Source: Euglena gracilis
Lineage: Eukaryota
Assembly: GCA_039621445.1 (NCBI GenBank)
Contig: CP154954.1
Span: forward strand, 24,316,954 to 24,380,953
Reading direction: 5' to 3'
Length of the DNA stretch: 64,000 nt
The position numbers were made by a program, and so were the translations under genes. The notes below the pieces were generated by a model. The model was given only the letters and a program-made list of their open reading frames with translations, did not search any database and was not told the DNA's origin. Shown here in pieces: positions 10,469 through 50,895 of the stretch (position 1 is the stretch's first letter; every line of letters starts with the position of its first letter).

Positions 10469-10572
10469 ATGGCCAAGCTCCGGCTGTGCAGCGGCTGCGG
10501 CAAGGGGCGGCCCAAGTTCCAGTGCCCGACCTGCAAGGCCGCCGGGGGCGACGAGGGCTTCTTCTGCACGCA
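10469..10572 (+). CDS. Gene 1 exon 1, first half of the zinc finger ([35 protein letters not shown])
   Basis: ATG 8 nt after a pyrimidine-rich tract ending in CAG. CxxC...CxxC...FFC pattern continues into the next exon. Confidence 0.85.
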
Positions 10573-13500
10573 GCGCGCGCCTGCGTCCGGCCGGCCCGGG
10601 CCGAGGCAACTGCGTTAGGGGTGGCCAAGGGCTCGGCTTAGGGTTAGGGATGGCTTTGCCTCATCCCTGAGATCTTGATCTTCAACGCGTATGTTTTTTT
10701 TCAATGTCAGTCACGGCTGGTTGGGCGACCCCCCCCCCACTCCCCCCTGGGAGGGGCCAGCAGGGGGTATTTTGCCAGTTGCACTATGCCTTTTTTTGCA
10801 TAATTTGCTTTTTTTGCACAATGTGAAACTGCTAAAGTCGCATTTTTTGCATTTCTTTTTGCGTATTTTGCCTTTTCTATTTGGGGGCAATCGCGCAGGC
10901 TCTACCACCAGACAACTAAAATTTGCATACTACACATTTTTGGACCAATTTTTCACTGACAGCATGGTGAGTATAAGTGCATCTCAGGAAACCAACCATG
11001 TTATTTTGCAAGTAGGCACTACATTTTATTTTGGTGTCCTATGGATATACTATGTTATATTATGCATGCTATATGCTTGCATATGCTGTGCAGCAAGTGC
11101 AAATTATAGATGCATATGCTGTGCACCCGGTTGCATAGCAAATAATGTTGGAAAAAATTCCTGGGAGGAGATGAAAATTCTAAGTCCTCTCCAGGAAGTG
11201 TACAGCAGCTCCTAAGGAACGACTACGTGCAACTTGCATTTTTCTTTTGCATTTGTTGCATTGCATATTTTGAGGTGCCTTGTTGCATGTTTTCCCCTGG
11301 AGGCCATGATACCCTGAAGCAGGGGTCCCAGGTTTGTTTTCTTTTCCCGGAGGGAACCCAAACCTGAATCTCGCCTTCCCCCCGGCTCCCCATCTACGCT
11401 TAGTCTCCATAGTCCACAGGGACGCAGGCGTGGAGGCGGCCTGTTTCAAGGAGCATTGGCCCGGCCACCGTGCCCTGCACACCTCAGCTGGGGGGCGGCC
11501 TTTGTCCGAGGGACGCGCCGGCCAGTCCGCCTTCTTCCATGTGGGAGCCGGCGGGGCCCCTGCTGATGTCCAGGCGACGCCGGCACAAACGTTGCTCAGT
11601 GTTGCCCTTTCCCCGGGGTCAGCCTGGGCAGCCCCCCACGCCGGCAGCCGCTGCCCCTGCGGACGCGGCCGCGGACGCCACACAGCGTGCGGCGGCGGCG
11701 GCGGCAGCAGCGGCGGCGAAGGAGGCGCAGCGGGCAGCGCTGCGGCAGGCGGCGGAGGCGAAGGCGCGCCAGGCGAAGCGCGCGGCGGACGCGGCGCAGC
11801 TCACCGCGGACATTACTGCGGCGCTGGCAGGTGTGTGCCATCTTTGCCCCCCCCCCCCCCGCCCGGCTCGGAACCAACTTCAATATTTGCGGTGAATGAT
11901 GGCCAGACTGAAGGCCAATCTTGTGATTGGGGGGGGGGAGTACTGGTTGTTACGTTGTGGGAAGTGCCGGTCCTGGGCAACGGCCCTCACCAAGCCTTGG
12001 GCACCAGATCACTGGGCTGCACCCAAGGTGAACAGACAAGGCCAGTGAAAACGGTCAAAGTTCGAATGCACCTGGCAGGGGGTTTGCGGATTAGACTGTC
12101 GGTTCCTCCTCGGGTGGCCCAGTGGAGGGCTACCTTCGGAGATGCCCTGGAGGATCAAGAGAGGGACATTCAGGAACGACGGAGAAGAAAGAAGAATGGT
12201 CCACCAAGCCGACACCACCAGTCCAAGCATCCACTGCCCGGGGTCTAAAAGCTGTTATGCAAAGGATAAGGATGTTCGGGGCATGGAACGATGGTTTTCC
12301 TGTTTGTTCGTGGGGACACTTCGTTTTTCTTTTGGAAATAGACCCCTCCTTCTCACCCCCCCATCCCCTGCCCACTGCCCACGTTGGACCATTGCATTTT
12401 CATTTGGCGGGTTTGGCGGTACTTCTTGTGCAACTGCAGGGTCAGATCCCCGAGCAGGGGGGGGGATTGTGCTTTTGGCTCACCGAAGGAAACGAAATGA
12501 AAAGGGTGCAAATGTTTGTAACAGCGGGGGGGGGGGGAGGGTGGCAAAATGCCCCAGAATCAAAAATAAAAATATCTCTTGAATTGCCCCATCTCCCCAC
12601 CTCCATGTCCCCCTCACCCCATGCCACTCCCCACAACCCCAAAGCAAATTGTTAATCCAATGTGGCACAAAACGACGGAAGAGGTAAATAATTTAAAATA
12701 ATGGCACAATTTGGAGGGAAAAGAGATTTCCTGTGCTTGAATCCAACAAAGAAATCTGACAGGTCAGGCAGGCACTCCCCCAGGAAAAAATGTCCATTGA
12801 GCATTTTGAAGCTTTGGAACATTTATGCACGGCCAAGGCTGCATATAGGTGGAGGTGGAAGTAGCAGTTTTTCAACTTCCTCCATCTCTATGCCACCTCG
12901 ATGTCAAAATGCCAAATGAAAATGTCTCACAAAGTTTAATTTATGACAAGAAAAGGCAAACCACATGACAATTTTCATGATCTGGTCATCCTTGCCGCAT
13001 ATCTCTGTGAAACCTTTTGAAACCACCAAACCAGTTATTTTTGCTCATTCCCAACCTGTTAATGATGTATTTTGATGGAAACTTGCTAAAAATGACGCAT
13101 CTGGTGCCTTTTACAAGCGCCTTTGATGTTTTATGGAAATAGCGGTGACATGGAGGTGGAGGTAGAGGTCGAGCTGGCTGACATAGAGGTAGAGGACTTT
13201 GACCTCTCCCTCTGCCTCTAAGCAGCCTTGGCACGGCACACATTACGTAAACCCCCCCAAAAAATAAGCCCCAGGTCTTATTTTTGGGTCCGTTGCTGGA
13301 AGCCTCCAGGGGAGTCTTATTTTTGGGGGGGTCTTATTTTTGGATTTTTTCTTGACCGACCCGGGCCCGAAAAAGCACCATTTTTCAGGTTCCCAAGAGT
13401 ACTAAAATTTTTCCTTCGGGGCTTCGCGCCATGTGCAGATTGGTGTAATTTGACATTTAGCATGTTTTTTTTGCACTTCAAAAATCTGAATTTTTTTGAG

Positions 13501-16500
13501 ATTTCGTCATTTTTGTGCATGAAATTGGGGTTTTTGGTAATTTTTCAGGGAAAAATTTCACCGTCCCCGGCGCTTCGCACCGTCAAGGGGGGTCTTATTT
13601 AGGGGGGGGGGGGTCTTATTTTTGGATTTTTGCTCGATCGGCCCAGGGGGGGTCTTATTTTTGGGGGGGGTCTTATTTTGGGGGGGGGGGCTTATTTTGG
13701 GGGGGGGTTTACCTCCCCTCCCCCCCCACGGCGCTTGGCCCCCCTCCTCCTTACATGCAAACTTGGCCTCCCTCAAGCTGGCCTTCGGCTTCTTGCACAT
13801 GCCCGCCACATTTTTTACCATGAAACCTGGCCCCCACAGGGGTGGCCCCCTGGCCTTTCCTTCAATCTGGGCCAAGCGCCCAGGGGTGGGTATGAGCCCC
13901 CATGAGCACGTGAGCATGCCGCATATGAGCGCCTGGGCACACCTCACGCCTACCACCAATGCCTGTCCCTAATCCGCGGTCTGCCCCCTCCCTCGCCCCG
14001 CCGGACCCCAACGCAGGGCAGAGCCACGTCCTCGTCGCCGGCCCCGCGGAGCCATCCCCCGCCTCCCTCGCCGCCGCCGCCCAGCTCGCCCACCAAACCC
14101 TGCAGGCCGGGGCGGCGGTGCTGATCCTCTGCGCGGCCCCTCAGCCAGGGGGGACGGCGGGGGCACCCGGCGCGGGGCCCCGGCCGAGAATGCCCCCGGC
14201 GGTGGTCTGTCCGCAGCGGGCCTCAAGCAGTGCGGGCGCTGTGGTGGCTTTGGCGCGGGGCGGGACGGACCGAACGGACAACCCGAGGGACCCTGCGATG
14301 GGGCCTTCCACGGGGCCAATACCCCCCTCCTTGTGATGTTGTGGTGGTTTCCCTTGGTTTTGTTTGTGACGCCTCGGTGGCCCCCAGCCCACACCCCTCC
14401 GGCAACCCTGCCCTCCTGTGGTTGGGTCACCAGCCCCCCTCAGAACAGAGCGCAGGTGGTGGCGGCCCATCTCCCCCCCGTTTTGTCTCGAGGCTTCGAT
14501 TCCTTCGTTAAACACGTCCTTTGCGCCAAAACTCGACCTCAATGGGTGGTGCAGTGGGTGGGGGGTCCGACCACAACACTCCTTCCCGTCGGGCCCCCAA
14601 CCCCTGGGCCCCCCCCGTGTGCACTGCGGCTGTTTTTTTCGGTGCGTTATCCCTTCTTTTTTTTGTCTCTGGCCCTTTTTGCCTGTGTGCGTTGGGGTGC
14701 CCCCCCCCCCCCTTCTTGTCTGTTTGTGGCCGACACTGACTTCGCCTCTAGCCCAGTTCGTGTGGTGAGTGGCCAGGGACCCCTGACCCCAGTGCCCGGC
14801 TGTTGCTCCCCCTGGCCAGGCATGCCCCCCCCCCCCCGCCCTTGCGGCCGCCCCTCTGCGGCCACCTCGCCGTGGCGGCGTACGCGGCGGTGCGGCGGCG
14901 GGCGGCGCCGGGGCTGCAGCCGTTCCGGGCGGGGCACGTGTTCGTCGGGGCGAACCCCTCCCTGCCCCTGCGCAAGGTTCGCCCCCCCCCCCCCCCGCCC
15001 CCCCCTGACGCTGGCCCCGCCCCCTCGCTTCAGCGGTGTGGTGTAGTGTGGGGCGGTGTCTGTTGGCACACGAGCCAGGCCCCTGGTGGGGGAGGGAACC
15101 CCTGCAGAGCTCCTGGCCACGCCAGTTGTTTTCTAAACTAATCCATGGCAGCACAGCTGTCATCCAGCCCTGACATCTTCTTTTCGACGTCGTTTGGCGG
15201 CTGGCCACCAGATGTTCTGAGGGCTGAAGTTGGGTCAACAATACCCCAACATGGTCCACGAATCGACGACTGGGCAATTTCTGTTTGAAATGTGTGCCTT
15301 TTCATTTGTGAAAACCCCAAAGGCTTCTATGGCACTCCGGAACTGCCGAGCTGACCTTTCTTTATTGGTGGGCAAGCATAGGGGTTGTGGTTCCTGTGCG
15401 ATAGTGTGCCTCCCACCTCCGGCTGTCCTTCAGGTCGCTGCGGAGTGCCAGCTGCTGGTGGCGGTCCCCGCTGCCTTCCAAGCCCACGCACCAACTTGCT
15501 CCCGGAGCAATGCAATGCGTGCAAGGCAGTCGTTTATGTTTTGGGGGGGGGGGGGGGGGAATTTGTGGGTTCTTCAAAGTTTCGGCCCACCGTATTCTTG
15601 GAGAACTGCAGCGGATGGAAACAAAGCTCATTTTAAATTTAAAGTTGGATATCTGTTCAATCTTTTTTTTGTTGGAAACTTTTTTTCACCCTCCAGCAAA
15701 GAGCGCAAAGATCCATCTGGGGTGAAGAATGACAACGGTGCTTTCAGTAATATCCTTCAAACCGTTTTGCACATTGTGTGTTTTTCATGGAAATTGGAAG
15801 AGGTCGAATGCGAGAATTTTGCTCTTTGAACCAATTTTTCTTGCTTCTAAGGTGTTTCGAATTTTTTTATGTCTTAATTTGGTTCTTTCGCCTTAGATTG
15901 TGTTCTTTTTTTAAAAAAAAAGAACGGTTGAACTCAAATCGGCGAATGCATCACCCGAAACCGCTGAAAGGGGCTCTGACCTCAATCACCCCCAAGTTTT
16001 TGAAATTGGTCACCCAGAGGGGGAGTTACCATCTGTATAAAACACGGGAATGGCCGAAGTCCACACCATCACTTCTTCCAAGATTTTTTAATACATTTGA
16101 AGGATGGTCACACTGTGGATAAACCCCCCCCCCCAAATAATAAACCCCCCCGGTTTATTATTTGGACACCCGAAGTCGGGGTCCAGGGGGGGGTTTATTA
16201 TTTGGGGGGGGTTTATTATTTGGGCAAAAATTTCGAAGTCAAAATTAGACCCGAAAACCCCTCCACAGGCTCCAATTGTCACTTTTTTGGCAGTTTTGGG
16301 CTTTTTTGTAAACTGGGTGCTTTTTTGGCATTTTTTTCTGCACCAATTTGATCCATTTTTGTGATTTTTTGCAACATTTCTGCTAATTTTTGGCTCTTTT
16401 TTCCTTTGCCCTCACACCTGCCAGAGGGGGGGGTTTATTATTTGGGCGGCCGAAGTCGGTCCTCAGGGGGGGGTTTATTATTTGGGGGGGGTTTATTATT

Positions 16501-19500
16501 TGGGGGGGGTTTATTATTTGGGGGGGGGTTTACTCTTTTTTCCCACCCGACCTTCCGCACACCGTTTCGGCGGAGGCCCTGGCGTCTCAGGCCGACCCCT
16601 CCCCCGTTGGTGGGTGCCCGCCGCCCTCTCCCCCAAGCCCCGGCAGCCCTACGCGGCAGTCATCCTCCTCGGGGCGGGGCTGCAGCCCCACGAGTACAGC
16701 AAGGCCGCCCAGCCCGACAGCCAGGCCCCCACCGCCCCCGCCAGGCGAGGCTCAATATGAAATTTTGCATTCAACGGCGAGAACTTCGGCGACCGGAAAC
16801 TGGAGGTAGGAGCCCCCCCCCCAGTTTTGGAAGGGTCCCCCCACCCCCCCCCTCCGAGATTCCCACACAAGCCAGGGGGCCAAGGCGGGAAGTGGGTGTC
16901 TCAATGTCGAGCCCCTGGCGCGTCCCTCGGGTGCCCGGGGCGGGCTCTCACCGAAGTCATTGGGACTGGACCACATCATGGGATGTCCTGTCCGGGGCTG
17001 CTCGGGGTTGGGGGGGGGCAGATGTTTCAGTGGCCCAGGCTGGCCCCCGGGGCCCTGCCGCCGCCCGGTACATGGTCGCCACCGCCGCCCCCGAGGGCGT
17101 GCCCATGCTGCAGCCCTGCCAGGCCCTGAAGGGTCTCCAGCAGGTGGCCCCACCCTGGAATGCTACACCCGCCCCCAATTGGACGGATAGCCCCCCCTCC
17201 AAGACAGGGAGTTTCTCAAGCTGGAGGGACCTAGCCTAGAGGTGCCAACCAACACCTTTTTTTCCCGCCGGCAGTTCCCAGCCAGCCTGCGGAACCCCCC
17301 AGCCCAGGGTCTGCTGCAATCAAGTTGTGGCCGGCGTGGAACAGCTGGGCTGAGCCAAAAAATTTCGTCCCCCCCCCCGGTCACCTCTTAAAAAAAACTA
17401 CTGAGGTACAACAGCACTGTCAGAGATCAGTCAGATATGCTCCTTTGACCACACGCAACTACCCTCTTTCCAGAGCGGTCTGCCTTGGTGCTGGTTGGGC
17501 AGTTATCAACGTGTGATCATGAAACCATTCGAACGTCTTTACGGTTCATTTTAACGTCAAAATTGACTGGAAAACCTTTTTTATATTTGAGTATATTTTT
17601 TTTTGCATTTATTACATTTGTTTATATTCACGTGTATTTTTATTATCATTATAATTGAGGCTGATTTTCATCTGATGCATTTGAAATGGCGTATCTTGAA
17701 ATGGAAATCGTTGACCAAGACTTATTGAGTCCGTTTTGATGGTAGGTTTGTAAGTGTGGAGTGTGTCAGACCATTGCTGAAGGGTTTGATTCCCCCCCCC
17801 CCACCGGGGGGGGCTCGATCCAAATTGGCCAGTGGAAATCCTAGTGGACCCCCTGGGTGTTCCGGTAGCAGGCTGACCAGTGGCAGTGACTGGCATGAAG
17901 CGCCGAATTTTTTTTTCCTGGAACCCCAAGACTTGCCCCCCAAAATGCCCGTTTTTGACCATTTTGGGATTTTATTTTTCCAAAATCAGCCAAAATACAT
18001 CGACCTCCTTTCCACCTCGTCGCGCAGCGCCGGAGTATTTTTTTTTTCCAGTTGGGGGACCAGGCTTCTTTTTACAAGTGTGGCTAAAAATTACGGAAGA
18101 CAAAAATTGCAGCAAAAAAAGTCCGAAAGTCAGAAGATCCCCATCCCCCTCCTGGGTGGAGGGGGATGGGTAGTTGGGTCTGCGGCCGGCCCCTCCGGGG
18201 GAGTCCCGGCTGGAGGCCTGGGTATGGGTTTCGGCACAAAACCAAAAGTTTTCTAGGAAATGCCCTCAGATGGCCTGATTTTGGGGGGGGGGCGCACCAG
18301 GCTGGGTGGAGGGGACCACCCCTCCCCCTGGGGGGTCTTAAAAGAAGCACGGGGAACCCCTGGTAGTGACTAGTCCCCCCCCAGGTCCTTGAGCAATGGC
18401 CCGATGTACGTGGCACAAGAAGAGGTGTATAAAAAGGCGAAAGGGTCCTTTTTGCTGGAACAGTTTGATGAGCATGAGCAGGCTATTTTCATTTTCATTT
18501 TTTTTGAAGAAAAAACCGGTGAGTTTACAATGCCCACCAACTTTTTCGGTGCACGTGCGTTCTTGTCCTTCTGTTTTATCACCTTTTCATCTGGGGCATG
18601 GAATTTCTTCAGGACCCTGGGGAAGGTGCAGGGCAGTACGGGAATCGGCCAAACAGCCTGGGTGGTGGGAGGGGGAGGTCGACCCCCATTTTTCGACCCC
18701 CAAGAAATTTTCCTGCCGCCTTCGGTGCCCGGAAAAATTGTGAAACAAATCTGCGAAAATGCTGTGGGTGGGTGGGGGGGGGTCGAACACCCCACCAGGC
18801 TTTTCCTGTACAGCTCTGGGCAGGGGTTTCCAGCCGGTCGGAAAAAGGTGCCGGCTGGAAGGGGATGCAGTCCAGTAAGCTTCCGGGCTGCACCCAGCGG
18901 GTATCCAAAAATTGGCAGAACAGCCCAAATTCAGTTGGGTTGGGATGTTTGAGCCATTGTTTTCAGGCAAACTCCAAATCCTCAAACACCCCCCCCCCCT
19001 TTTTCACCACTTTTGACACCCTTTTTGAATAGTTTTGGCACTTTGGGCAGAAAATCATTTCCCTCACCTCTGGGTCAAAAACCTCATTGGTGATGGGCTG
19101 TGGGGGCAGTCTCAGGGAGATTGGGGGGTAGTTTTGGGTAGGGGGAATGTGTGATTGGGGGTGCAGTTGCTTCCTAAATAAATACAATTTTTGGATGAGC
19201 GCTGGGATGAGCGTTGGGATGAGTTTTGGATGATCCCTCCCCACCCCGCAGGAACCGGCCGAGGACGACCCCAGTTCCCCAGCGCCGCTGTACGACCAGT
19301 GCGATGACTACCTGACCCACCTGCTGCTGCAGACCTTGCACCCCGGCCGGGCAGCAGAGCATATCCTGAAGGTGTGTGTGTGTGTGTGTGTGCGTGTGTG
19401 TGTGTGTCTGTGTGTGTGTGCGTGCGTGCGTGTGTGTATGTGTGTGTGTGTACGTGTGTGTACGTGTGTGTGTGTGTACATGTGTGTATGTGTGTGTATG

Positions 19501-22500
19501 TGTGTGTGTGCGTGTGTGTACGTGTGTGTGTGTACGTGTTTGTGTGTGTGTACGTGTCTGTGTGTGTACGTGTGTGTACGTGTGTGTGTGTGTGTGTACG
19601 TGTGTGTATGTGTACGTGTGTGTATGTGTGTGTGCGTGTGTGTACGTGTGTGTGTGTACGTGTGTGTGTGTGTGTGTGCTTGTGTGTACGTGTCTGTGTG
19701 TGTACGTGTGTGTACGTGTTTGTGTGTGTGTGTGTGTGTGTAAGTGCGCCTGTGTATGTGTGCGCCTGCTTCATGTTTGCGTGTGTGTAGGGCCACGTTT
19801 CAGGTCCCGGAAAATTTGATATCCTGACTGTTTGGTTGCCTGAGGCTCCGCGGAGCCTCCATACCTGGTTGGTCACCTGAGGTTCCACAGAGGTTCCGCA
19901 GAGCCTCCTCCTGGTAACCAATTTTTTTTTGTCAACCACCGTTTGTTTTTTTTGGAAATAATCAGAAAATGGAGATACTTTGAAGGAGTAGGGCTGGGGT
20001 TGAGATTCCACACAGTTGAACCTTTCCCGTTGATATATTCGGTCGTCATATGCCTTTCCGCGGTGCTCAGCAAACGCAAAGAGTCGTCCTCTTAAAACAG
20101 GGAGGCCGAGTGAGGGTTCCCGTCTGTGTCTTATCCAAGTTGGGGTCGGTGGTACCCTGTACGAGCAATTTTTTCATAGTCCCAAATTGTCACGAGAGAA
20201 GAGCGACAATTTTATCGGAAAAAGCTGAGCTTTAGGAGTCCGCCGCGGAGCCTGATTGCCTGGAGGCTCCCCAGCGCCTCCGCAGAGGTTTCCAAATTAT
20301 TCGCAAGGCACAATTCCACCCTGCAGGAGAGCCCCCCCCCCCCCTGGATTGCTGCGGTGCGGCTGTCTTCCGGCCTTTCCGTTCACGATGGGCGGAGGAG
20401 CCGGTCGCCCCCCCCCCCTCCCCAGGCCATCCCGCCGCTCAGCCAGCCGCAGGTGCGGCAGTCCGTGCGGTGCGTCGTGGAGGCGATGGATCCCGATGGC
20501 CGGGGCCCCCTCCCCTCCCCATCAATCCACCTCCCCCACGGCAGGGTTGGATGGGAAGCCCTTCGGGATTGAGGTAGGTGGTGGGGGGGGGGTCCCGACC
20601 CCCCCCCCCCCCCCTGGGGGGTAAGGTGGTAGGGGGGGGGTCGCTGAGCTCTTATCCCTTTATGGGTAAGAGCGAAGCTTACCACCGGCGAAACCTCCCC
20701 TCGACCCCCCTCAAGGCTTCCCATCAGTCCCCCCCCCCCGGGGGCCGGGGTTTGGAGTTGTGCTGCCCCAAGGCCGGGCCTTGCCGCGGGCCCTTCGGTG
20801 TGGCCAAGGCTGGGAGAGGGCTCTGTTCCGACGTGGAGAACGGGGCCCATGCGTTGGCACTACGCAGCGGTCGACCTTTTCCGCACACTTCTGTCTTAGG
20901 GCAAAAAGCAACGACGTTCGAAGCGGCGTAAGCCTTGTGAGGGGAGACCACCCAAAGGGGCCGGGGAGGGCCGGTGAACATTCCCCTGGTGTCCATTGCT
21001 AGAAATAGAAACATTTGGGGGAGGTACCTTTGGATTTGACCCAGGCCCCAAATACCAGTGTTTTGGTTGCTGAAAGGGCAAAGGATTTCATCTGATGCAG
21101 TGAACTGCGCGGATTTTGATTTATATTAATGTTTCGCGTGTCAAAATCAGAAGCCTGTCTTTCCCTTTTTGGCTTCGGCAATCCGGAAATTTATGAATTG
21201 ACGTTGCGTGACACTGGGTGTTGCCATGTTGTTTTTTTCGGTCTTAATTCTGCATGTTTTCTTTTTCTAGATCGGCCCTGGGGGGAGAAAACTCTTGTCG
21301 GGGGGTTCGTGGGGCAGGCCCCGGATGATCGAGCAGCGTCCGTTGCTGCCACCGCCCAGTCCCAGGGCAGCCCCCCCCTTCCCCGAGGGGCAGGGCAGAA
21401 TGGGAATCGGCCAAACAGCCAGGGTGGTGGGTGGGGGGGGTCTCTGCGTCGACCCCTCCCCCCACCACCTCTTCCCATATTTATGGGAGCACCAATCTTT
21501 GGACCCCAAAACTTTTTCCCGGCGCTTTCGGCACCAGGTGCATTTTGGACCCATTTTGGCACCAAAATGTGGTCCAGTTTCTTTGACCTTCGTTTTTTTA
21601 CCCCCCTCCTAAAACTGCCAATTTTTTTGAACCTGAAACCTGAGTTCTTTTGTGCAAAAAATGTGGTTCTCCATCAAAAACCATGTATTTTATGTTCGTT
21701 TTTCAAAAAAAAATCAAAATTTCCCCCGGCCAAAACCCTCATTTCCCCAAAATTGGTGAAAACGCTGTGGTGGGTGGGCGGGGTCGACCCCCCACCTCCC
21801 AGGTGGGGGGGGGGGGGTGCACCCCCCCCCCCCCCAGGCCTTCCTGTGCTGCCCTGCCGAGGGGCCACTGCCCAGCCGGCGGGTCGGGCGCTGCCGCCAT
21901 CGCTGCTGGTCAGCCTCTGCAGCGCGGCGCCGAAGCCCAAGTTCGGGAAGTGCTCCGCCGTCGTGATGGGCGTCGCCCAGAGGTTTTTTTTTTTAGTCGT
22001 GGACCCCCGGGGGGGGAGGGGGGGTGAGGTGGGTGAGCCCGGCCGAGCCCCCCCCCCCCCGGGGGCCACCCCCCAGGGGGGAGTGGGATTTGCTTTTCGG
22101 CGCCGAAGGCGCCGAACATTTTTATTGAAAAGGTGCTATTTTTAGAATTTTTCGCGATTTTTGAGTAGGTCCCCCGGGACCCCCCCCAGGGGGTGGGTGG
22201 GGGGACCCCCCCGGGTCTTAAAAAAAAGCCCCTGGCGTTGCCACGGCGCTGCGGTCGGCGCTGCAGGCGCACCCCGTCCTGCCCGGGCGGCCCCCCCGCA
22301 AGGTGTGGGCCGCGGAGGGGGGGCGGTGGCGGTGCTCAACGATGTCGCCCACCCCTCGCCATTGGCTCTTGTTTGAGCCTGGCTTGACTGTCCACTATTT
22401 ATTTATATGTATTTTTAATTTGTTTTACAAATGCCTTGACTCGAATATCTTGAATACCTTTCACAATTTAAATTTTGATTTTGTTTTTTATTATTTTATT

Positions 22501-25500
22501 GTTTTGTTTTTGTATCGAAAAGCCTTTCATTTAATATTAAGTCCCCAAATACAGAATCGAATAGCATTCCATTGCTGTCAGTTCCTCATTTTGAGGTACA
22601 GTAGCCTGACACATTAAATGGGCGGCTAATTAATGCCACTGACAAGCACACCGGATTCGTGCTGGTGGCAGGGTAAACGGTAAGTGGCCGTCTGTCTCCC
22701 ACCACTGTCACACCGAACCCCGAACCCCCCCCCACCCAAGGAGAGGGCTTTCCCTCGCACCCCACAGGAGAGGGGACCTTTCTTGAAAAGAATTCCCGCT
22801 ACCATCGTCTTTAAATGAAGCAACAAAGAAAAAATACTAAAATAAAACAATAAAAACAATTTAATGAATTGATTAAATAAATTAATCATCGATAAAGAAA
22901 TTACACTCATATATTATTATAATAATAAATAATAACTTAATAGCAATAAAAGGGGAGCACTCTCAAGATCCTACCCCCACTTCAACATCCGCTCTGAATT
23001 CCAAGCAACGGGGTTCAGCGTGTGTCAACCCCCCCCCCCCCTCGCAGGGGCGGTGGTACTTCCACGCCGCGGTGGCCCATGCCCACCCCCACGTGGAGCC
23101 GGAGGTGATGGACGACATCGCCCAGGCCCTGGACGTCCGGTGGCTCGTGAAGCCGCCGGTGCGGGAGCCCATCCTGGTCAAGTGTGCTCCCTCCCCCCCC
23201 CCACTGGCACACACCCGGATTTGCTTTTTTTTGAATTCCCCATTTCTCCCCCTTTTTGGCAACTCCTTCTTTTCCCGTCTTTTCCGTTCTTTATATCTTA
23301 CCTCCCCCCCCCTTGTCGTTGACACGGCGTGTCGTTGACACACCCGTGTCAACGACACTTTCCTGGAACATATTTTTTCTTTTGTGTTGGCCACAGTTTC
23401 TGACAAATTTCAGCCAGGACATTTCAAAAATGGGTTGAATCTTCTTTCCAGCCATGGCTTCGAATGTCATCCCCATTCGCACCGGACACAGTGTGGCGGA
23501 CATGCATTCATAGGGTCATTCATTGTTACTGGTGCGGTCGATTTTTTTTTAGGTACTGTGTCGTTGACACGGCGTGTCGTTGACACACCCCCCCGTGTCA
23601 ACGACACTTTCCTGGAACATTGGCGTGTCAACGACAAGGGGGGGGGGAGGTACCCCTCCGCCCTCCTCCAGCACAGCGTCGTACTCAGCGTCGGCACCAG
23701 GGTTTTTTTTTTTAGTCTTGCACCCCGGGGAGGGGGGGGGGGGCGGGGTGGGTGGGTCTGGCCGAGCCCCCCCCGAGGGGTGGTCTCCCCAGGGGAGTGG
23801 GATATACTTTTTTGATTTTTTTGAAAAAGTCCCATTTTTAGCACTTTTCGCGATACTTTGGCCATTTTTGGGGAAAGGTGAGTGGGTCCCCCGCCCCCCC
23901 TGGGGTGGCCCCCAGGGGGTGGGTGGGTGGGTGAGGGGGACCCCCCTCCCCCTCGGTCTAAAAAAAAACCCCCTGGTCGGCACAGTGTCGTTGAATGCAC
24001 AGCATTTTTCGTTGCACGCACCCCATGCCAGTGTGCCAATGCCACTTTTCCGGACGTCACCCATTTCCCATTCAAGCACCACCAGCGGCACCCTCCTGCA
24101 CCTGTCCCTGCCGTTTTGGACCGGGGGGCGTGTCACGTTTCTCGCGCCCCGTTTCTTTCCCACCCCGGCCCCGCTGCCTCCGCCTCGCCTTCCGTTGCTT
24201 CACCGCCCCACACAGGTACGGGCACCACGCGGACCTGTACGAGTGCGTCCACGCGGTGCTGCAGCACGCCCTGCGCTACCTCAGCGTCGGGGGCCACCCC
24301 AAGGACCGGGACGCGGGGGCCCGGGACCCGCTCGGCGGGCGGTCCTGCGGGGCAGGTGGTCGTCGGGTCCGCCGCTGCCTGTTGGGCGTGATGGGTGGGC
24401 TCCCGCCACACATCTGCTGTTCGGCATCCTCTCACCAAACGCCACACTCACCAAACGCCAGGAAGGCTGGTGGGTATGGCATGCGGTCAGCAGGAGAGGG
24501 GCGGGGCACAAACACTATTTCCTCTAGCGTTTCTATATTTGTTTTTTTGTGTGTGTTTTTTTTGCCAATTTACAATTTTTTGTGAATTTTTCAAATTTGC
24601 AAATTTTTTGAGTCTTTTTTTTTGGAGGGTCCCCCCTGTGGAGCAGGAGGGGGATGTTGGACTGAGCTTCTAACCAACACGACTGCTGGTGTACACTGTG
24701 TCCGGAGGGGCAGGGGGACGAGGGGCTCCCGCCAGAGACCTGCACAATGGACAGACCAGCGCACTGCTGGAGCAGCTGTGCTGGCCGGAGCTGCTGGCCC
24801 CGCTGCTGGGGCCGCACAAGAACCTGCTGAAGCAGGAGGCGAGGTGTTGCCGCCCCGAGCCCCCCCCCACCCCCACCGGCCCTTGACGTTGGAACACTGC
24901 GCTTGAAGTGGAGCCCCACCCCGGAGATGCTTCTCTTCACTGCTGCAAGTAACACTCGGAGTGAGAGGCATTCCATTGCTTCAATTTTTTTTTTGAAAGT
25001 GGAAGTGATTTCCTCACCCCTGGGGTCAGAATGCAATGGTGTGGTCAGGGGTGTACACCAATCTGCTTGTTTTGGGCATTGTTTGCACTTGCAAAAAAGT
25101 GTGCATATTGATGTGCTTGATATTTGTTTGACTACTTCTGCTTGTGTAAATGTGTGAAACATGTTTTTCGACGTGTGTGCCGCTGGTCCTGAGTTTTGAG
25201 CTGAGGGTTGAGGCTTGCTTCCCACCAAACGGCCACCATGCATTTCTGTTGGTATGGGTTGGCTTCCTGGGTGGCTTCGTCCTGCAGTCCATTTTGGTTG
25301 GATATCTCTCTTTACTCCCTCAGCGTGTACTACCCGCAGTGCTCGCGGACTGGGGACAAATTCAACGATGGCACATTGCGTGTCTTCGCCTCGTACTGGC
25401 GAGCGCGACAAATCCCCAACTGCCTGTGCATGTTCCCACTCCGTTCTGAGTCCGAAATGGTCACAGGGGTACCTTCTTGCTCTCAGTTTTACCCCATATC

Positions 25501-28500
25501 AAAACTGCAGGAAACTACCATCGATTTCCACCTGGACCCCAGGAGCTCTCCTGGCGGTCCCTTCAGACTTGCGACTGAAAACCTTCCATCTGGAGTGCGT
25601 ATGCCTGTTAACTGGAGCCCTTTGTGTGTCTCCCTGTGCTAATTGGCTGCCATTCCTCCTGGCAGAGGTTTTCACCGTTGCTTTTCTTCCCTGGGGAATG
25701 GTCTTTTGGGTTACTGGACCCTCTTCTCAGCCCTCTCACCAGCTCAACCTCACAAGGGACAGAATGGCGCCAGGCTCGGGCTCGTCAGGCGCAGACCAAG
25801 TTCCCTGACAGCACCACCTTCCCCGTGTGCACGCAGAAGGCCGAGCAGCGGAAAGTGCTGCCCACGCTTTCGCCCTCTGCCATATGGCCACCACTGGTTA
25901 CTTGGCCGAAGTGGATTGAGGCGTCAAATCCAAGTCTTCTCACGGATTGACAATCGGTCGTCGTTTTCAGTTTCCTCTCCTCAGGGCTGTATGGGACTCC
26001 CCGAAACTGTATGGGCAGTGGATGGGGGAGTGTCAACCCTCCACCTCCATCCTGGTGGGTTGGGGGGTTGGGGGGGTTTGGCCCCCTCCAGAACTTCCAG
26101 GGAGTCGAGTCAAAAGTTTCTGTGCGCTATGGTGGATCCACCAGGCCTTCATGCGCAGCCGTGTTCTCCCTTTGTACAGTAGGGAAACTGAATAGTGGGA
26201 CGGCCCAGGGAAACTAAATAGTGGGACACCCCCCAAAAAAGCTGATGTGTTTTCTCTAACCGAAACAAACTTTGGGCAGCTCTGCAGCGTGCTTTTGCTG
26301 ACATTTCTCCCGAACAAATTCGAGGTATACACGCGTCGATGCCCAGCTGCCTTGCTGCTGTGCTCGACGCTGATGTTGGTCCCACCCGTTAATGACAGGC
26401 CCCCCACGGCCCTAGGCCATCCATTGGATGGTACTGGGTACACCTTAAACATGCCACACATTGAAGCCTCCTGATATTGCAACAATTTGAAAACCCTTTG
26501 CAACTCGCTGACGGTCTCCGGGGGATCAGCATTTTTTGGGGGTGTCCCACTATTTAGTTTCCCTGGGCCGTCCCACTATTTAGTTTCCCTGCTGTAACTG
26601 TTTAGTTCAGATGAGTAAATTGCATGGGACGCAACCACATAGAATGTTGCAGTTCAAAAGCCTGGCCAAACGCCGTTAAGGGTGACCCAGGTTTCATTGC
26701 AGGCTCAACCTCACATTGAGCTGCAGAGCTTTCGGTCACAAAAAACCTGCAAATCTACCCTTATTCTATATCCTGCTGTGGTTCCCCCTTTTGGGGGGGG
26801 GCTTGGGGGCCCATTGGGGGTCAATTTGGAATTACCCTGAAACTTGGAGCTTCTCCAGGAATGGGTACCTGCTCGGGGGGGGGGGGTAGGCACCTATTTG
26901 GCCCGACCCCCCCTTGGGGTCCCCCAACAAAATCATCAATGGGCCGCCCTCCCAAGGTCCTCATAAGACTCTCCGTGGGCCGGGCGTGGCGGGGATCGAC
27001 CAGGCCATCCAGGAGGTGCTGCTCATGATGCCCGCCGGGGACGGCCTCATGATGGCGGGGCAGCTGGGGGCCCAGCTGGGCGGCTGGCAGGCGTTCTGCA
27101 AGTGTGGCTGCGGGGCATGGGGGCGTGCTGGCGGCCATGCAACTCGGGGCCATGGCGACAACCGAGTGTTCGCTTTGCGTGTGCAAGGGGGAGAGAGTCT
27201 GGGGGAACTCCTTTCTGGCGGTAGGGAGGGGTTGTGGATCAAAATTATTTCCTCCTCAGCCAGCCGGTTGGGCCATTTGCCAAAAGTGTCTGAAAACAGG
27301 ATTTTGCGTTTTTTTGAAATCCCCTTTTTTGTGCTGGTTTTGTTATTACGGGATTGACCCACCAACACTTTTCCCTCCCCTCACTAAATACCCTCCTCGG
27401 AGCATCGGTGTGCCTGAATGGCAGAATTCGCGTAACCCGTGAACTTTGGGAGAGACATTGGGCAACCATTGTCTTCCACGTTATTGTCTGACTGTCAGTG
27501 TTAGTCAGGGTCCCAAGTTAAAGTTAGCACGTGCCTGTTAGCAAGTGATGAGACAATGCCACAGGGCTACATCCAATATGTGCGCATGCAAACGGCCCAC
27601 TTGAGGATGGCGGCGGCACAAATTCGACTGCATGCAAGGACTCGCCCTGTGGAAATAATGAGTCCACCTACAGATTGCACCTACAGACTGCATGCAAGGA
27701 CTCGCCCTGTGGAAATAATGAGTCCACCTACAGATGCTGAAACGGTATAACGGTATCTGTTTTTGCGGTTATGGCAAGGCTGGGGAGAAGGTTTGCAGAC
27801 TTTTGGATCTCTGGCCTAGGCCGTCAGGGAGACCAGGTAGCACCAACTGGCAGTGGCTGCGCTGAAGGCGTTGCTTTCGAGGCTCCCAGCATTTCGAAAC
27901 GGCACTGCAATTCACCTGAGCGGCAGGCAAATTGGAGACTTTGGGGGGACGTTGTGCCTGTCTGCTCTCACCTTGCGCAGCAAGTACGCTGTGGATTTGG
28001 CACCGTCGTTGAGAATGTTCTTCCAGAAGTTCCCCGAGCACTTCACACTGTGTGACCCGGGGACGGCGGTGGTGGATCAGTTTTGTCTGAGACGGCCACA
28101 GTGGGTCGTGTTCCCCGTCCTCACCCACACCCACACCCACCCACCCACCCAAACTCACCCACTGCTTGTTGCATGAGACCTCTGTTTTCACCTTTTTTTT
28201 GGAAACATATGCTCCGGCCCTCGATCCAGCTTCTCTCGCCATCAACAACCTGAACCAAATGGGCAAGGTTAGGGTTGGGGCCAGGGCTATACTCATCCTA
28301 TTAAAGGCGTTGGCTGATCCTAACCCTAATCCTAGCCACCAGAAAAGGTGGCTCAGATTGCGCAGCGGCCACCACCCGGCGAGGGGGTCCCGCGGTCCGG
28401 CCGTCTCCGGCCGGGGAGGACGAGCGGCTCGTGAAGCGGACGGTGGCAGCGCCGGGCCACGTGCAGGTCGTGATGCCGACCGGCCGGGCGGTGTCCGGGC

Positions 28501-29026
28501 TGGACGGCGACGACGAGGACGGGCAGAAGAAGAAGAAGCCTGCCGAGGCCGGAGGCTGCGGGGGTAGGGTGTCGGCAAGCGTTTGGCCGAGGCTGAACAG
28601 GAAGGCGCGGCCGACGGAGTTCTTGGCTTCTGGCGCGGCCCAGGCACATTTTACCACGTGCCCCCCGGATCAGACGTTGGTGTCTGGGTGCCTTGGAGTG
28701 GCTGCCCATTGGACAGCCACCCCAGTGGACTCTAGACACATCCAGCCTACTTTGGGCTCAAGCACGGCACTGCACAAGTGTACCACCATTTTTTGCCATT
28801 GGCGGCCGCCGTGGGGGGGGCAACGCCCCTTTGGCCGCCGTGGCCCCGGCCTCCCGGCGTGCCGACCCGGCGGGGGCGGATGGCGAAGGTGAAGCAGGTC
28901 CGCATGGAGGTGCTCGCCCGCCGCGTGGCCCGCAAGACGAAGATCTCCAAGCTGAAGAAGAAAAAAACCGCCCCGCCCCGGCCGCGGCTTGCCATGGTCT
29001 ATGGCTCAAACCAGAAATTCATTTAA
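10469..29026 (+). CDS. Gene 1, multi-exon (about 25 exons): C6H2/MYND-like zinc finger, Ala-rich helix, degenerate DEAD-box-like RecA domain, helical region, possible winged-helix/LOTUS-like segment, Lys/Arg-rich tail
   Basis: Manually joined exons: 10469-10572, 11438-11567, 11632-11830, 14017-14148, 14218-14252, 14407-14449, 14864-14976, 15434-~15480, 16570-16590, 16647-16718, 17063-17143, 18385-18424, 19252-19371, 20426-20497, 21330-21387, 21862-21974, 22240-22266, 22311-22343, 23048-23181, 24216-~24349, ~24749-24843, ~26977-27101, 27981-~28100, ~28365-28548, ~28860-29026 (TAA). Most junctions match in phase. Those marked ~ are unresolved. Confidence 0.75.
10573..11437 (+). other. Nonconventional (stem-type) intron splitting the zinc finger
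   Basis: cgcgcctgcgtcc starting at +4 pairs with ggacgcaggcgtg ending at -6. No AG at the 3' end. Removal restores CTQACF. Confidence 0.75.
11438..11567 (+). CDS. Gene 1 exon 2 ([14 protein letters not shown]...), completes the zinc finger
   Basis: Joined to exon 1 it gives [19 protein letters not shown], the C-x3-C...W-x2-H-x3-H end of MYND/MetAP1-type fingers. Confidence 0.85.
11568..11631 (+). other. Intermediate intron with GT-AG ends plus a CAG/CTG stem
   Basis: gtcCAGgc...gcCTGggcag, 64 nt, in-frame join. Confidence 0.7.
11632..11830 (+). CDS. Gene 1 exon 3, Ala/Arg-rich helical linker
   Basis: In frame after intron 11568-11631. GT donor at 11831 (phase 1) matches the acceptor at 14016. 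Confidence 0.8.
13246..13713. mobile_element. MITE with gtaaacccc termini and ggggtcttattt subterminal repeats
   Basis: Inverted ends gtaaacccccccaaaaaataag / cttattttgggggggggtttac. A related reversed copy lies at about 54610-54975. Confidence 0.7.
14017..17143 (+). CDS. Gene 1 exons 4-11 (span includes introns), degenerate DEAD-box-like domain
   Basis: Spliced peptide ...[18 protein letters not shown]...AVLILC...[12 protein letters not shown]...HVFVGA...CQLLVAVP...[10 protein letters not shown]...RYMVATAA follows the order of SF2 motifs I, Ia, GG, Ib, II and III. Confidence 0.6.
14450..14863 (+). other. Nonconventional intron
   Basis: gcgCAG...ggcggcc pairs with ggccgcc...CTGcggcc|A. In-frame join gives EQNLAV. 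Confidence 0.65.
16118..16534. mobile_element. MITE with ggggtttattattt repeats
   Basis: Inverted ends taaacccc..aaataataaac / gtttattatttgggg..tttac. Similar repeats occur at about 5345-5450, 54288-54480 and 57090-57190. Confidence 0.7.
16719..17062 (+). other. Nonconventional intron
   Basis: agcCAGgcccc ... ggggccCTGccgcc|G, phase 0 join PD|ARYMV. Confidence 0.7.
18629..18818. mobile_element. hAT-like MITE, family B, short older copy
   Basis: cagggcagtacgggaatcggccaaacagcc ... cagctctg with decayed flanks ggaaggtg / ggcagggg. Confidence 0.75.
19252..19371 (+). CDS. Gene 1 exon ([40 protein letters not shown])
   Basis: CAG acceptor and GT donor. Phases match exon 18385-18424 and exon 20426. 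Confidence 0.8.
19372..19788. repeat. Compound (TG)n/TACG microsatellite starting at a splice donor
   Basis: TG runs interrupted by tac, tgc and tat. Confidence 0.95.
21391..21856. mobile_element. hAT-like MITE, family B, probably intron-forming
   Basis: TIRs cagggcagaatgggaa / ttcctgtgctgccctg with a perfect TSD ccgagggg. Confidence 0.9.
21862..21974 (+). CDS. Gene 1 exon (..[30 protein letters not shown]) lying between two MITEs
   Basis: GC3-rich coding sequence that continues in frame as ATALRSALQ at 22240. Confidence 0.75.
21975..22239 (+). other. Nonconventional intron made of a family-A MITE plus one TSD length
   Basis: gccCAG...CTGgcgtt|G, phase 0 join [13 protein letters not shown]. 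Confidence 0.75.
21978..22234. mobile_element. hAT-like MITE, family A, intron-forming copy
   Basis: Same termini and interior as 1904-2172. Flanks gcgtcgcc / gcgttgcc. Confidence 0.85.
23048..23181 (+). CDS. Gene 1 exon ([45 protein letters not shown])
   Basis: CAG acceptor and GT donor in phase 2, matching the acceptor at 24215. Strong GC3 bias. Confidence 0.85.
23301..23650. mobile_element. TA-flanked MITE with internal palindromic repeats
   Basis: TA|cctccccc..ttgtcgttgacac ... gtgtcaacgacaagggg..agg|TA, with repeated gtgtcgttgacac / gtgtcaacgacac. Confidence 0.85.
23698..23975. mobile_element. hAT-like MITE, family A, inside a GT-AG intron
   Basis: cagggttttttt...aaaaacccccctg-type termini with a perfect 8-bp TSD gtcggcac. 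Confidence 0.9.
24216..24349 (+). CDS. Gene 1 exon ([32 protein letters not shown]...)
   Basis: CAG acceptor and strong GC3 bias. The 3' boundary is approximate. Confidence 0.8.
24749..24843 (+). CDS. Gene 1 exon (..[29 protein letters not shown])
   Basis: Strong GC3 bias. Boundaries approximate. Confidence 0.7.
25300..25545 (-). pseudogene. Possible Merlin/IS1595-like transposase remnant
   Basis: [11 protein letters not shown]...RARRYPCDH...W...[11 protein letters not shown] resembles G-x2-VEIDES...KRKY-x-RG...W...VP-x-R. Contains an in-frame stop. Confidence 0.4.
26177..26594. mobile_element. Tc1/mariner-pogo-type non-autonomous element
   Basis: About 70-bp TIRs starting CAGT, each with a duplicated agggaaactraatagtgggac motif. 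TA on both flanks. Confidence 0.9.
26977..27101 (+). CDS. Gene 1 exon ([41 protein letters not shown])
   Basis: GC3-rich. GT donor at 27102 (phase 2) matches the acceptor at 27980. Confidence 0.8.
27626..27735. repeat. Tandem duplication with 60-bp period
   Basis: gactgcatgcaaggactcgccctgtggaaataatgagtccacctacagat occurs identically at 27626 and 27686. Confidence 0.9.
27981..28100 (+). CDS. Gene 1 exon ([28 protein letters not shown]...)
   Basis: CAG acceptor, in-phase join. The 3' end is approximate. Confidence 0.75.
28365..29026 (+). CDS. Gene 1 last two exons (span includes an intron at about 28549-28859), acidic then Lys/Arg-rich tail ending ...VYGSNQKFI*
   Basis: [10 protein letters not shown]...[12 protein letters not shown] and [33 protein letters not shown] ends at 29026 and is followed by a TG tract. 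Confidence 0.7.
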
Positions 29027-29035
29027 CCCTTGTCT

Positions 29036-29053
29036 GGTGTGTGTGTGTGTGTG

Positions 29054-29119
<66 letters not shown>

Positions 29120-29158
29120 TGTGTGGGTGTGTGTGGGTGTGTGGGTGTGGGTGTGTGG

Positions 29159-29223
<65 letters not shown>

Positions 29224-29326
29224 TGGGTGTGTGTGGGTGTGTGTGGGTGTGTGGGTGTGGGTGTGTGGGTGTGTGTGTGTGTGTGTGGGTGGGTGGGTGG
29301 GTGGGTGGGTGGGTGGGTGGGTGTGT
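29036..29326. repeat. (TG)n/(TGGG)n tract just after the gene 1 stop
   Basis: Seen directly. Confidence 0.95.
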
Positions 29327-31677
29327 CAGTGTGTGCAGTTTGTGGGTGGTTTTCATGGGCTGGAACACCCCTCCCCCCAAAGGGACTGGGGCATCTGGTG
29401 TCGGTCCGACTTGGCTGAAGGCCGGCCTGAAAACCTTCTCCCAATGTGCTTTGACCAATTCTTGAGAGCCTTTGGTTTGGTAGGTAGGTCGTCCCCCCTT
29501 CTTCCGGGTAAATGTGTCGGTTTCAGAGAAAATAAATGCCCAGCGGTTGCTTTTTTTCACGTTTAAACGAAAGTTGTTGGCTTTTCTCCTGTCTTTCCTC
29601 CCCGCCCCGCCTTGCGTAATTTGGAATTTGAATTATTTTGACTAACTTCCGTTTTTTTTCCTTCCCCCTTTCCTGTTCACTTTTTCTATAAAGGCTCGAT
29701 TTTTTCGCCAATAACCAACACATTCGTTTTTAAAAAATGCATACAGCGCACACCCGGGCATGCATTCGTTTGGATGCCGGGGTGTAACACATGATGGAGT
29801 CGAGTGGAAACCGCCCATTCTTTCCGGAGGGTGCCCCACCCCCGTCACTCTCCAAGTCAGGTCTGTCTCGCCCGCCAAGCCGAGGCCGGGGCACAACCCG
29901 CAAGAGGGGCCGCGGGCTCATGCCCCGCCGCAAGGTGTTCTGACCGGCGCCCATGCAGCCGCGGTAGCCTGTGCCACCCTATCCCTCCCCCTTGCCCACC
30001 CCCTGAGCCGTGCTGGGGCCCACACTGGCCGCTGCAGGGAACTCCCGCTGCGTGGTGTTGGCTGGGGCGTAGCATAAGAAAATTTGACCCCACCCCCCGG
30101 GGTCCAGCCAGCCAGCAACCTTTTTCCAGCCCCTCCGCCCCTCAACGAGTTTATTTTTTTCCAGCCGCCCGCAGGGCCGCCCGCAGGGCAGGGCGGCTTG
30201 ATGGTAACAAATTTTTCGCTTTCGGGGTTCAAAAATGGGCCAAAATGGGTCAAAAATGGGCGAAAGTTGGTCGAGGGTCGGAAAAGGGCTGGTCAGGGCG
30301 AATTTCGGGTAAAAAAAAATCGATTTTTTGACCCCCATGCATAATTGCATGTTTTGCATAATTGGCAGTTTTTTTGGACAATTTTGCTGTTTCGATTTTT
30401 TTTTTTGGTACCCGGTTCGACCCTGGTTTGGGCCCAGCTCCAGGGACCCCTGAGGGGGGGGGGTCAGGCAGCAACCTTTTTCAGCCAGCCCAAATTTTCC
30501 AGCTCTAGCTGGAACGCGGGGGGGGGCTCTAGCTGGAACGCGGGGGGGGGTTAAAAATGCCCTGGTGTTGGGCATGGCCTATTGCCCTGGGACAACATCG
30601 GTTGCGGTGCAAATCTTCTGCCTGCCCCGTTGCTGGCTCCCCGAACACAGTGCTTCCTCTGTGGCACCTTTTTATCCCTTTGACCCGTCCCCAACACCAC
30701 AGTAGTGTGCAGCGTTGTGCCGCAGGCTGGTGGGTGCCATGAGTAGACAGGGGGTAGGGCATTTTCGAACCCCCCCCCGCCGGAGGATCGGGGTTTGGGG
30801 TGGATAGTGCTAGAGCATGCCCTCCGGTGCCGAAGGTGTCGGGGCCCGAAAATTGCCATTTTTTATGGGAAAATTGGCTTTGTTGGCAGGCGCAGGGGCC
30901 CAAACCGCCCCCCCCCCCCCGGGTGTCTGCCTGCTGTGGGCCGGCCCCCTGGGCTGGTAAAAAGAAGCCGGATTGTGCGACCGCCCCTCCCGCCTCCATC
31001 CGTGTGGCCCCAGCCCCCGTTTCCCTCCCCCGCTGCCTCCCCTGCCCCGAGCCCTCCCAACCCTCTCCCTCTCCCACTCCACACTGTTGCCCCCATCAGC
31101 AGTCCTGAAGGCCTCACTGGCCACACTCTGCCCTTCCCCCACAGCAACGTTCCGGCCTGCGCTATGTGTGCGCGCCATGGGCGTCTTTTTTTGTGCACGA
31201 GACGCTGGTCGGTGGGCCCCAAAGGTCCAAGGGCAGATTTCTGGGGAATGTATGGTGCGCATAGTGTATGGTGAGTGTATGGTGTATGGTGCGCAAAAAC
31301 CGCTTGACACTGCACTGACTTTTTGATTTATGATTTTTTTCCCTCGGCGATGTCTGCACCACCTCCCTGCGTTGTCGCGCGTCAAAGCGGCTTGGCAGAG
31401 GTTCACTCCGGTCACGTGGGCTGCCTGTGGCAACGTTTTCCCGCCCCCTCCCCCCCGGGCGACGCAGGCTGCCGGCCACCCCCGGCGGCGGCCATGGTTG
31501 GGCCCCGGCGGTGAGGTGGCGCCGGCTTGCCTCCCTGCCCGTGCCAGCCACCGCAACCCGGACCCCGAGTTCCCGCACAGGCAGGCCCGGCCGCCATTCT
31601 GAGACTCGCCCCTCCCCCTGGGAGGTCAGGCTTCGGCTGCTCGCCGCCACAGTACTGTCCTGGAGCCTGCTGGAGGT

Positions 31678-36600: not shown

Positions 36601-36879
36601 GGAATTTACGTGCGTTTTCTCGAGATATTTTCGAAAAATCAAATTTTTTGACCGAAGATCTCACCCCAGCGAAATGGCAGAGTCGGAAAGGGGGGCCAAT
36701 CCTGCTCAGTTTGGACCCCTTCACGGGTGAATAACTCGGGCCTGGCGGGGAATTGAGGTGATTCGGAAAACCTTAAATCCAGTCGCTCGCGAATGAAAAA
36801 AATTCTGGGAATGGGGCCTGGGGCATGGTGATAATCTGCCAGTCCCCACCTGCCCATGGGGGGAGGGCAAGGGGGGGGG

Positions 36880-50886: not shown

Positions 50887-50895
50887 CGGCACCGA

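Follow-up and report, generated by a model that had tools for sequence, protein, structure and literature searches.

A hAT-like miniature inverted-repeat transposable element as a probable complete nonconventional intron of an expressed Euglena gracilis gene

Background

The origin of the nonconventional introns of euglenids, and the reason for the odd code by which they are spliced, have been in question since the 1990s. Among the marks of this class is excision as a circular RNA, later than the conventional introns and by a non-U1 route. A stretch of the Euglena gracilis genome 64,000 nucleotides long (assembly GCA_039621445.1, contig CP154954.1, positions 24,316,954 to 24,380,953 of the forward strand; hereafter the window, to whose own numbering all coordinates refer) raises this question at a single locus: can a transposable element that has inserted into a coding exon be, by itself, an entire nonconventional intron? 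The element concerned, here called A2, is a MITE (miniature inverted-repeat transposable element) located within a gene for a zf-C6H2/MYND-finger protein of 705 amino acids (aa). That this hAT-like MITE makes up, by itself, the whole of a nonconventional intron in an expressed gene is given a probability of about 0.8.

The hypothesis of a MITE-like origin for these introns, in which no element was named, dates from 2013 (Milanowski 2014, PMC3935182). It is repeated in a 2024 review, which also notes repeats resembling target-site duplications and treats CAG/CTG as inverted repeats (PMC11282704), and in the discussion of Nomura 2025 (PMC12501133); a preliminary description of this locus was thus correct in remarking that an origin from transposons had earlier proponents. 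The splicing code itself, N3-CAG...CTG-N5 followed by a purine (N3 and N5 being spacers of three and five nucleotides), was defined by knock-in of introns and of mutated versions into an exon of E. gracilis: a strict length of 3 nt is reported for the 5' spacer, an optimum of 5 nt with 6 nt tolerated for the 3' spacer, and a preference for a purine as the first base of the downstream exon (Nomura 2025, PMC12501133). The genome-wide consensus for E. gracilis is given as CCAGG at positions +3 to +7 and CCTG at -9 to -6 (Gao 2024, PMC11170887). In Euglena agilis, nonconventional introns are stated to make up about 70% of all introns, and direct repeats to be present at the borders of 84.4% of introns (PMC12501133). 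One of them, the strain-specific intron 4 of gapC in E. agilis ACOI 323, was recently gained and is bordered by eight-nucleotide direct repeats, which its authors read as the footprint of double-strand-break repair (Milanowski 2016, PMC4770533). Both the idea of a MITE origin and a case of 8-nt direct repeats bordering a recently acquired intron of this class had therefore been published already. A full-text literature search, covering article texts outside supplements and subscription journals, found no paper in which a particular transposon family of euglenids is identified as an intron, in which hAT elements are brought in, or in which the spacers of 3 and 5 nt are said to add up to the length of a target-site duplication.

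Results and Discussion

Anatomy of the intron-forming element

The 257 bp of A2 occupy positions 21978-22234 (no strand is assigned to A2 or to any of the other elements described below). Direct inspection of the letters places CAGAGG followed by T11 at the 5' end and A8 followed by GCCCCTG at the 3' end, the terminal triplets being CAG at 21978-21980 and CTG at 22232-22234; the terminal inverted repeat that A2 has in common with the other copies of its family has the form CAGRGG-T(n)-A and extends over approximately 13-18 nt. The element is flanked by the putative target-site duplications gcgtcgcc (21970-21977) and gcgttgcc (22235-22242), which are identical at 7 of 8 positions and differ only at the fifth base (c versus t). 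An intron extending from 21975 to 22239 would consist of 265 nt (257 + 8) and would place CAG at +4 to +6 and CTG at -8 to -6, dividing the left duplication into 5 exonic nt and a 3-nt intronic spacer, and the right duplication into a 5-nt intronic spacer and 3 exonic nt. The coordinates, ends, flanks and triplet positions that the preliminary description had given for A2 all match the letters. Folded in silico, the RNA of this intron is predicted to pair at its termini (CAG.AGGU11 with A8GCCCCUG) with a minimum free energy of -163.5 kcal/mol (z -4.25), and none of 200 shuffled sequences folded as well.

The host gene and its transcript-derived protein

The translation of the left flank (window 21840-21974, plus strand) served as the query of a protein search that targeted longer proteins, in which a single protein among 96 candidates scored: P0001 (eukprot:EG_transcript_4041), a transcript-derived protein of 705 aa from E. 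gracilis that contains the domains PF15801 (E value 1.5e-12) and PF01753, with its zf-C6H2/MYND finger in the N-terminal part. Over its full length, P0001 can be placed on the plus strand as 23 exact blocks between 10469 and 29940, which define the 23 coding exons of the host gene, and 704 of its 705 residues are identical, so that the window must derive from E. gracilis or a very close relative. The lone mismatch is residue 44, which is Asn in the protein and Gly (codon GGC, 11463-11465) in the window; the difference needs two nucleotide changes and points to variation between alleles or strains, or else to a mistake in the assembly.

P0001 is continuous in sequence over A2. Exon 12 (21899-21974, plus strand), whose start is given by an acceptor of intron 11 that conforms to the code, has its end within the left duplication. 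Exon 13 (22240-22302, plus strand), which opens with a purine (G) and is followed by the conventional GT-AG intron 13, starts within the right duplication, the sequence missing from the protein being 265 nt. Retention of A2 could not give the 705-aa protein, because the reading frame, if continued past the end of exon 12, runs into a stop codon inside the element at 22143-22145 and because 265 is not a multiple of 3. The G+C content by codon position is 0.71/0.62/0.87 to the left of A2 and 0.74/0.71/0.97 to the right, a third-position (GC3) periodicity that keeps one phase. Because the transcript-derived protein matches and the GC3 periodicity has the same phase on both sides, the exon context is real: A2 interrupts a real coding exon, as the preliminary description had proposed. 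Its further claim, that one duplication length is lost together with the element, also holds for this protein, since the mature product, known at the protein level from one transcript-derived sequence, lacks exactly the MITE and 8 nt. A minus-strand frame with equally high GC3 was rejected, since P0001 matches the plus strand.

A search of representative proteins returned 109 proteins at E <=0.001. By the coordinates of their best stretches, only the distant relative P0023 covers the junction region, with an ungapped match over residues 348-390 whose support is weak (24% identity), and the closest relative, P0002 (58% identity), begins at residue 398. Metagenomes scanned with a 30-nt stretch of exon 12 gave no matches; when scanned with a 17-nt stretch of the MITE arm they gave 45 loci, all of them attributed to chance, and the best alignment to the MITE spanned 22 nt.

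The predicted splice junction and a scarless excision model

Ten donor/acceptor pairs, with donors at 21968-21977, are compatible with the protein at this intron, the twelfth of the host gene. A GT/GC-AG junction is formed by none of the ten, and the published code, written N3-CDG...CHG-N5|R, is fitted by one: 21974|22240 (gcc-CAG...CTG-gcgtt|G). The predicted nonconventional intron 12 accordingly extends over 21975-22239 on the plus strand and comprises N3, the MITE and N5. This is the junction that the preliminary description had proposed, now singled out as the only rule-conforming member of the protein-compatible set, and the paired CAG/CTG geometry that it had ascribed to euglenid introns is that of the published code (PMC12501133). 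The CAGG...CCTG termini of elements in the window agree with the genome-wide consensus reported in PMC11170887 as well. At the fifth base of the duplication, the splicing rule predicts C in the mRNA.

The explanation favoured for these observations is that a non-autonomous hAT-like DNA transposon of 257 bp, with CAGRG ends and inverted repeats of about 15 nt, would have inserted into an E. gracilis coding exon and produced an 8-bp target duplication, and that the nonconventional splicing system may recognize the paired CAG/CTG ends of the element in the pre-mRNA. With one cut falling 3 nt upstream of CAG and the other 5 nt downstream of CTG, the element would be removed along with 8 nt, one duplication's worth, and the pre-insertion frame would be restored exactly, without a scar. 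Because the spacers of 3 and 5 nt add up to the 8-bp duplication length, such excision would restore the pre-insertion sequence at any target, the only added condition on the target, as we infer, being that base 6 of the duplication should preferably be a purine. The orientation of the element should not matter, since its two ends are inverted repeats. The argument that 3 + 5 = 8 is a mechanistic interpretation of the sequence in the light of the published code, and it is on the same footing that we infer removal from this allele at the RNA level, at 21974|22240, by the nonconventional pathway. The insertion of A2 is probably not new, because the family copies are only about 72-76% alike and the duplication has one mismatch. 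With 23 open exons and 704 of 705 residues identical to the transcript despite a probably old insertion, the allele would appear to be functional.

Element families and 8-bp duplications in the window

When the window was queried with A2 by blastn, two further full copies and three short partial matches were found. One full match extends over 1910-2172 (73% over 274 columns) and the other over 23701-23975 in two pieces (72% and 67%); direct reading together with a motif scan placed the ends of these copies at 1904-2172 (A1) and 23698-23975 (A3). A1 lies in AT-rich non-coding surroundings between the duplicates tttggagt and tttggaga, and A3, with gtcggcac on both sides, is nested in the conventional intron 14 (23182-24215). 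Aligned with each other, the three copies have a mean column identity of 76%. Family A is thus small, non-coding and multi-copy (257-278 bp, three copies in 64 kb), which confirms the multi-copy nature previously ascribed to A2, and in all three copies the match between the flanks peaks at a length of exactly 8 (7/8, 7/8 and 8/8).

The whole window was scanned for CAG...CTG pairs with a separation of 40-3000 bp, and in each pair the 8 nt beyond one end were compared with the 8 nt beyond the other. With a strict inverted repeat (>=10/12), 5 of 205 pairs had flanks matching at >=7/8, compared to 1 of 204 in a control displaced by 8 nt. With a relaxed inverted repeat (>=8/12), 3,743 pairs were obtained, of which 10 matched at >=7/8 and 5 at 8/8; the corresponding numbers in five displaced-flank controls were 3, 1, 2, 2 and 2 (>=7/8) and 0, 1, 0, 0 and 0 (8/8). 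Flank duplications at CAG...CTG pairs in the window exceed chance. Three of the ten pairs at >=7/8 (21535-23975, 38084-40935 and 50091-50264) were judged to be due to chance and dropped.

When compared over 8 nt, the flanks of the seven elements retained (A1-A3, B1, B2, C and D) score 7/8 or 8/8, against no more than 6/9 over any other length from 2 to 12, and six of the seven start with CAGGG. B1, B2, C and D, all of them CAGGG...CCCTG elements, represent two or more further families, and the 8-bp duplication of every one is perfect (8/8). In family B, B1 (52387-52931) is flanked by gggttccc and B2 (CAGGGCAGAATGGGAA…CCCTG, 21391-21856) by ccgagggg; B2 is nested in the nonconventional intron 11, 42 nt upstream of its acceptor. 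Element C, of 117 bp (46304-46420), has the inverted repeat CAGGGTTYGATATAAGGA and the duplication gcccagcc. The 1.9-kb candidate element D (35423-37296, duplication acctgcac) has only CAGGGCRTC ends, contains no long open reading frame (ORF), and is the weakest of the seven. Because there are seven such elements, because their flanks peak only at 8, and because six of them start with CAGGG, several element families with CAG(G)G ends and duplications of exactly 8 bp are present in the genome. The 8-bp target-site duplication that the preliminary description had recognized at A2 is upheld both by the controls of the scan and by the length-8 peak. All six duplication-bearing elements other than A2 are situated in non-coding DNA, three of them within introns of the host gene, and none of the six is a whole intron; in family A, one of three copies is a whole intron, A1 and A3 being in non-coding DNA.

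The termini CAGAGG, CAGGGG and CAGGG agree with the C/TAG(G/A)G start of hAT-type elements, and family A makes target-site duplications of the 8 bp typical of hAT elements. The target preference of hAT elements, nTnnnnAn, fits one of the three family-A duplications (gtcggcac), a sample of three that is far too small. No long transposase-like ORF was noticed by eye among the 54 ORFs of >=180 aa in the window, Pfam not having been searched with them.

Another repeat, a 360-bp element inside intron 18 (26206-26565), has a perfect inverted repeat of >=20 nt (CAGGGAAACTAAATAGTGGG...). It was rejected as a duplication-bearing element: its flanks (6/8) are mutual reverse complements, so that the inverted repeat merely continues, and for this reason the true ends of the element probably lie further out.

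The other introns of the host gene

A codon-bias scan of the window, trained on the host gene, gave no convincing second gene outside 10469-29940, and the sample of introns is therefore limited to one gene. Twenty of its 22 introns were classed: 8 are conventional GT-AG introns, 6 (including intron 12) fit the published code, 3 keep the N3/N5 spacers with other stems, and 3 do not fit. Introns 1 and 2, which are non-GT-AG and have no simple fit to the code, were left out of the count of 8-mer duplications; five introns in all (1, 2, 6, 10 and 20) are outside the N3/N5 geometry. Among the 12 nonconventional-type introns compared for matching 8-mers at this geometry, intron 12 scored 7/8 and the other 11 had a mean of 3.27/8 and a maximum of 5, compared to 3.30 for a null of mismatched pairs; the 8 conventional introns scored 3.75 in the same comparison. 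Intron 12 is also the only one that is a repeat from end to end, the remaining introns of the host gene holding partial, nested repeats. A general duplication signal is not supported by this one gene, and the test is a weak one for old introns, because the intronic halves of their duplications are free to drift.

The stems of introns 18 (25860-26993; CAC/GTG), 21 (28542-28858; GAG/CTC) and 22 (28975-29894; CCG/CGG) fall outside the published CDG/CHG code; all three introns have spacers of 3 nt and 5 nt and a purine as the next base. Long dinucleotide-type repeats, at approximately 19400-19770 in intron 9 and 29000-29300 in intron 22, are visible as THTH... or CVCV... in ORF translations. Outside the host gene there are two similar coding-like translations, at 50872-51057 and 31749-31883 (the second containing ...PLILLVRRGEGGS...), which are possibly a dispersed repeat with an old ORF.

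Alternative explanations

The main rival to A2 as an intron is a presence/absence polymorphism, according to which the transcript came from an allele, paralogue or strain without A2 and the copy in the window is an unspliced null allele. Several observations weigh against the intron reading, among them the one amino-acid difference at residue 44, which with its two nucleotide changes shows that the transcript stems from an allele, strain or assembly that differs slightly from the window and could in principle lack A2. P0001 comes from one source, in a cluster of one member, and a search for shorter proteins across the A2 junction gave no match among 118 candidates. The cut at 21974|22240 is deduced through protein rather than RNA, and the protein cannot fix the cut site, because the c/t difference between the duplicates is synonymous (GTC and GTT both encode Val). 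The likeness of A2 to hAT elements consists of its ends and duplication length only, and 8-bp duplications are not specific to hAT elements, other superfamilies making them too; of the hAT-like MITE of the preliminary description, the 8-bp duplications and the CAG/CTG ends stand, and membership in the hAT superfamily does not follow from them. Strain-specific nonconventional introns, as a polymorphism would require, are documented in E. agilis (PMC4770533), but the identity of 704 of 705 residues and a frame unbroken through all 23 exons, in spite of an insertion that looks old, speak against a null allele, and A2 fits every tested requirement of a code that is sufficient upon knock-in into an E. 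gracilis exon; the polymorphism is considered unlikely. Much less probable still is an origin other than transposition, in which a double-strand break was repaired with filler DNA and the intron was formed, direct repeats included, in that way. Break repair was proposed for the E. agilis gapC intron with its 8-nt repeats (PMC4770533), whereas the DNA inserted here is a family member with terminal inverted repeats, of which other copies are found at unrelated sites, each with an 8-bp duplication of its own, the signature of integration by a transposase.

For the broader question of where the code comes from, the alternative is a coincidence of compatible geometries: the code would have arisen apart from transposons, A2 would merely be tolerated by it, and most such introns would not be derived from MITEs. 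The chances of this are only slightly short of even. It would account for the scores of the 11 other introns, which are at the level of the null with none reaching 6/8, for the solitary status of intron 12 as an end-to-end repeat, and for the three introns with other stems at N3/N5 and the five without fit, and it suits a 3' spacer that tolerates 6 nt (PMC12501133). Yet two independent features agree, namely the terminal CAG(G)...(C)CTG and a spacer sum of 8; the 64 kb contain no fewer than seven CAGGG-type elements whose duplications measure exactly 8 bp; the newly gained intron of E. agilis has 8-nt direct repeats (PMC4770533); and the absence of duplications from old introns is weak evidence, because the intronic halves decay freely. 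The contrary proposal is that the spacers of 3 nt and 5 nt preserve, as a molecular fossil, the 8-bp stagger with which hAT-like transposases cut, that the pathway amounts to scarless excision of CAG...CTG transposons at the RNA level in either orientation, that such MITEs are the main generators of nonconventional introns, and that older introns have lost the intronic halves of their duplications. It is offered tentatively, with the odds somewhat against it. That the splicing code descends from the geometry of hAT insertion is an attractive idea that lends itself to testing; it is unproven, and is regarded as possible rather than probable. The preliminary description had gone further and equated the code with the geometry of a hAT insertion, for which the 11 other introns without a duplication signal and the six other elements in non-coding DNA provide no support. 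What stands of that description is the specific case, that is, the element, the exon, the product and the junction rule; what does not yet stand is the exact RNA junction, the hAT identity and the general claim.

Comparison with known systems

The predicted intron 12 resembles the euglenid nonconventional introns described in PMC3935182, PMC12501133 and PMC11170887 in the lack of GT-AG borders, the positions of CAG (+4 to +6) and CTG (-8 to -6), the purine that follows, the paired ends, and the direct repeats at the junctions that make the intron 'slidable'. It differs from them in that A2 is a whole intron from a multi-copy family with an identifiable 8-bp duplication; a MITE-like origin is only hypothesized in the texts of those papers, and no element is named there. 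Intron 4 of E. agilis gapC is similar in being a recently gained nonconventional intron with eight-nucleotide junction repeats, and differs in the break-repair interpretation given to it and in that its published account reports no repeat family (PMC4770533).

The introners of Micromonas, Aureococcus and dinoflagellates, too, are DNA transposons that have inverted repeats, duplicate their target and turn into introns on insertion, some of the duplicated sequence being removed with them. They are spliceosomal, however, with GT/GC-AG sites that come from the element or from the duplication, and they make short duplications (3-5 nt in the examples given; PMC11282704). A2, in contrast, would be removed by a non-GT-AG code, without a scar, through 3 + 5 = 8. 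Introner copies are mostly whole introns spliced at GT/GC-AG sites; in family A, the whole introns number one of three, and no GY-AG junction is possible at A2.

Maize Ac/Ds elements, which belong to hAT, have C/TAGGGATGAAA termini and make 8-bp duplications (PMC3260210), as compared to the CAGGG start of six of the seven window elements. This likeness is one of ends and duplication length. Ds elements, too, are said to have been found spliced from messages, by Dennis in 1988 and Giroux in 1994. The removal of Ds is imprecise, being carried out by the spliceosome through cryptic sites.

Conclusions

The A2 locus offers a concrete case in which a multi-copy, 8-bp-duplicating, CAG/CTG-ended element probably forms the whole of a nonconventional intron in an expressed gene. 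The locus further suggests a quantitative rationale for the splicing code, namely that the spacers of 3 and 5 nt must sum to the duplication length if excision is to be scarless, and this rationale makes the hypothesis of a MITE origin testable on existing genomes and RNA-seq data and with the published knock-in assay. If the case is general, Euglena would be an example of a host that neutralizes a whole class of transposons at the RNA level, and such tolerance would let introns multiply.

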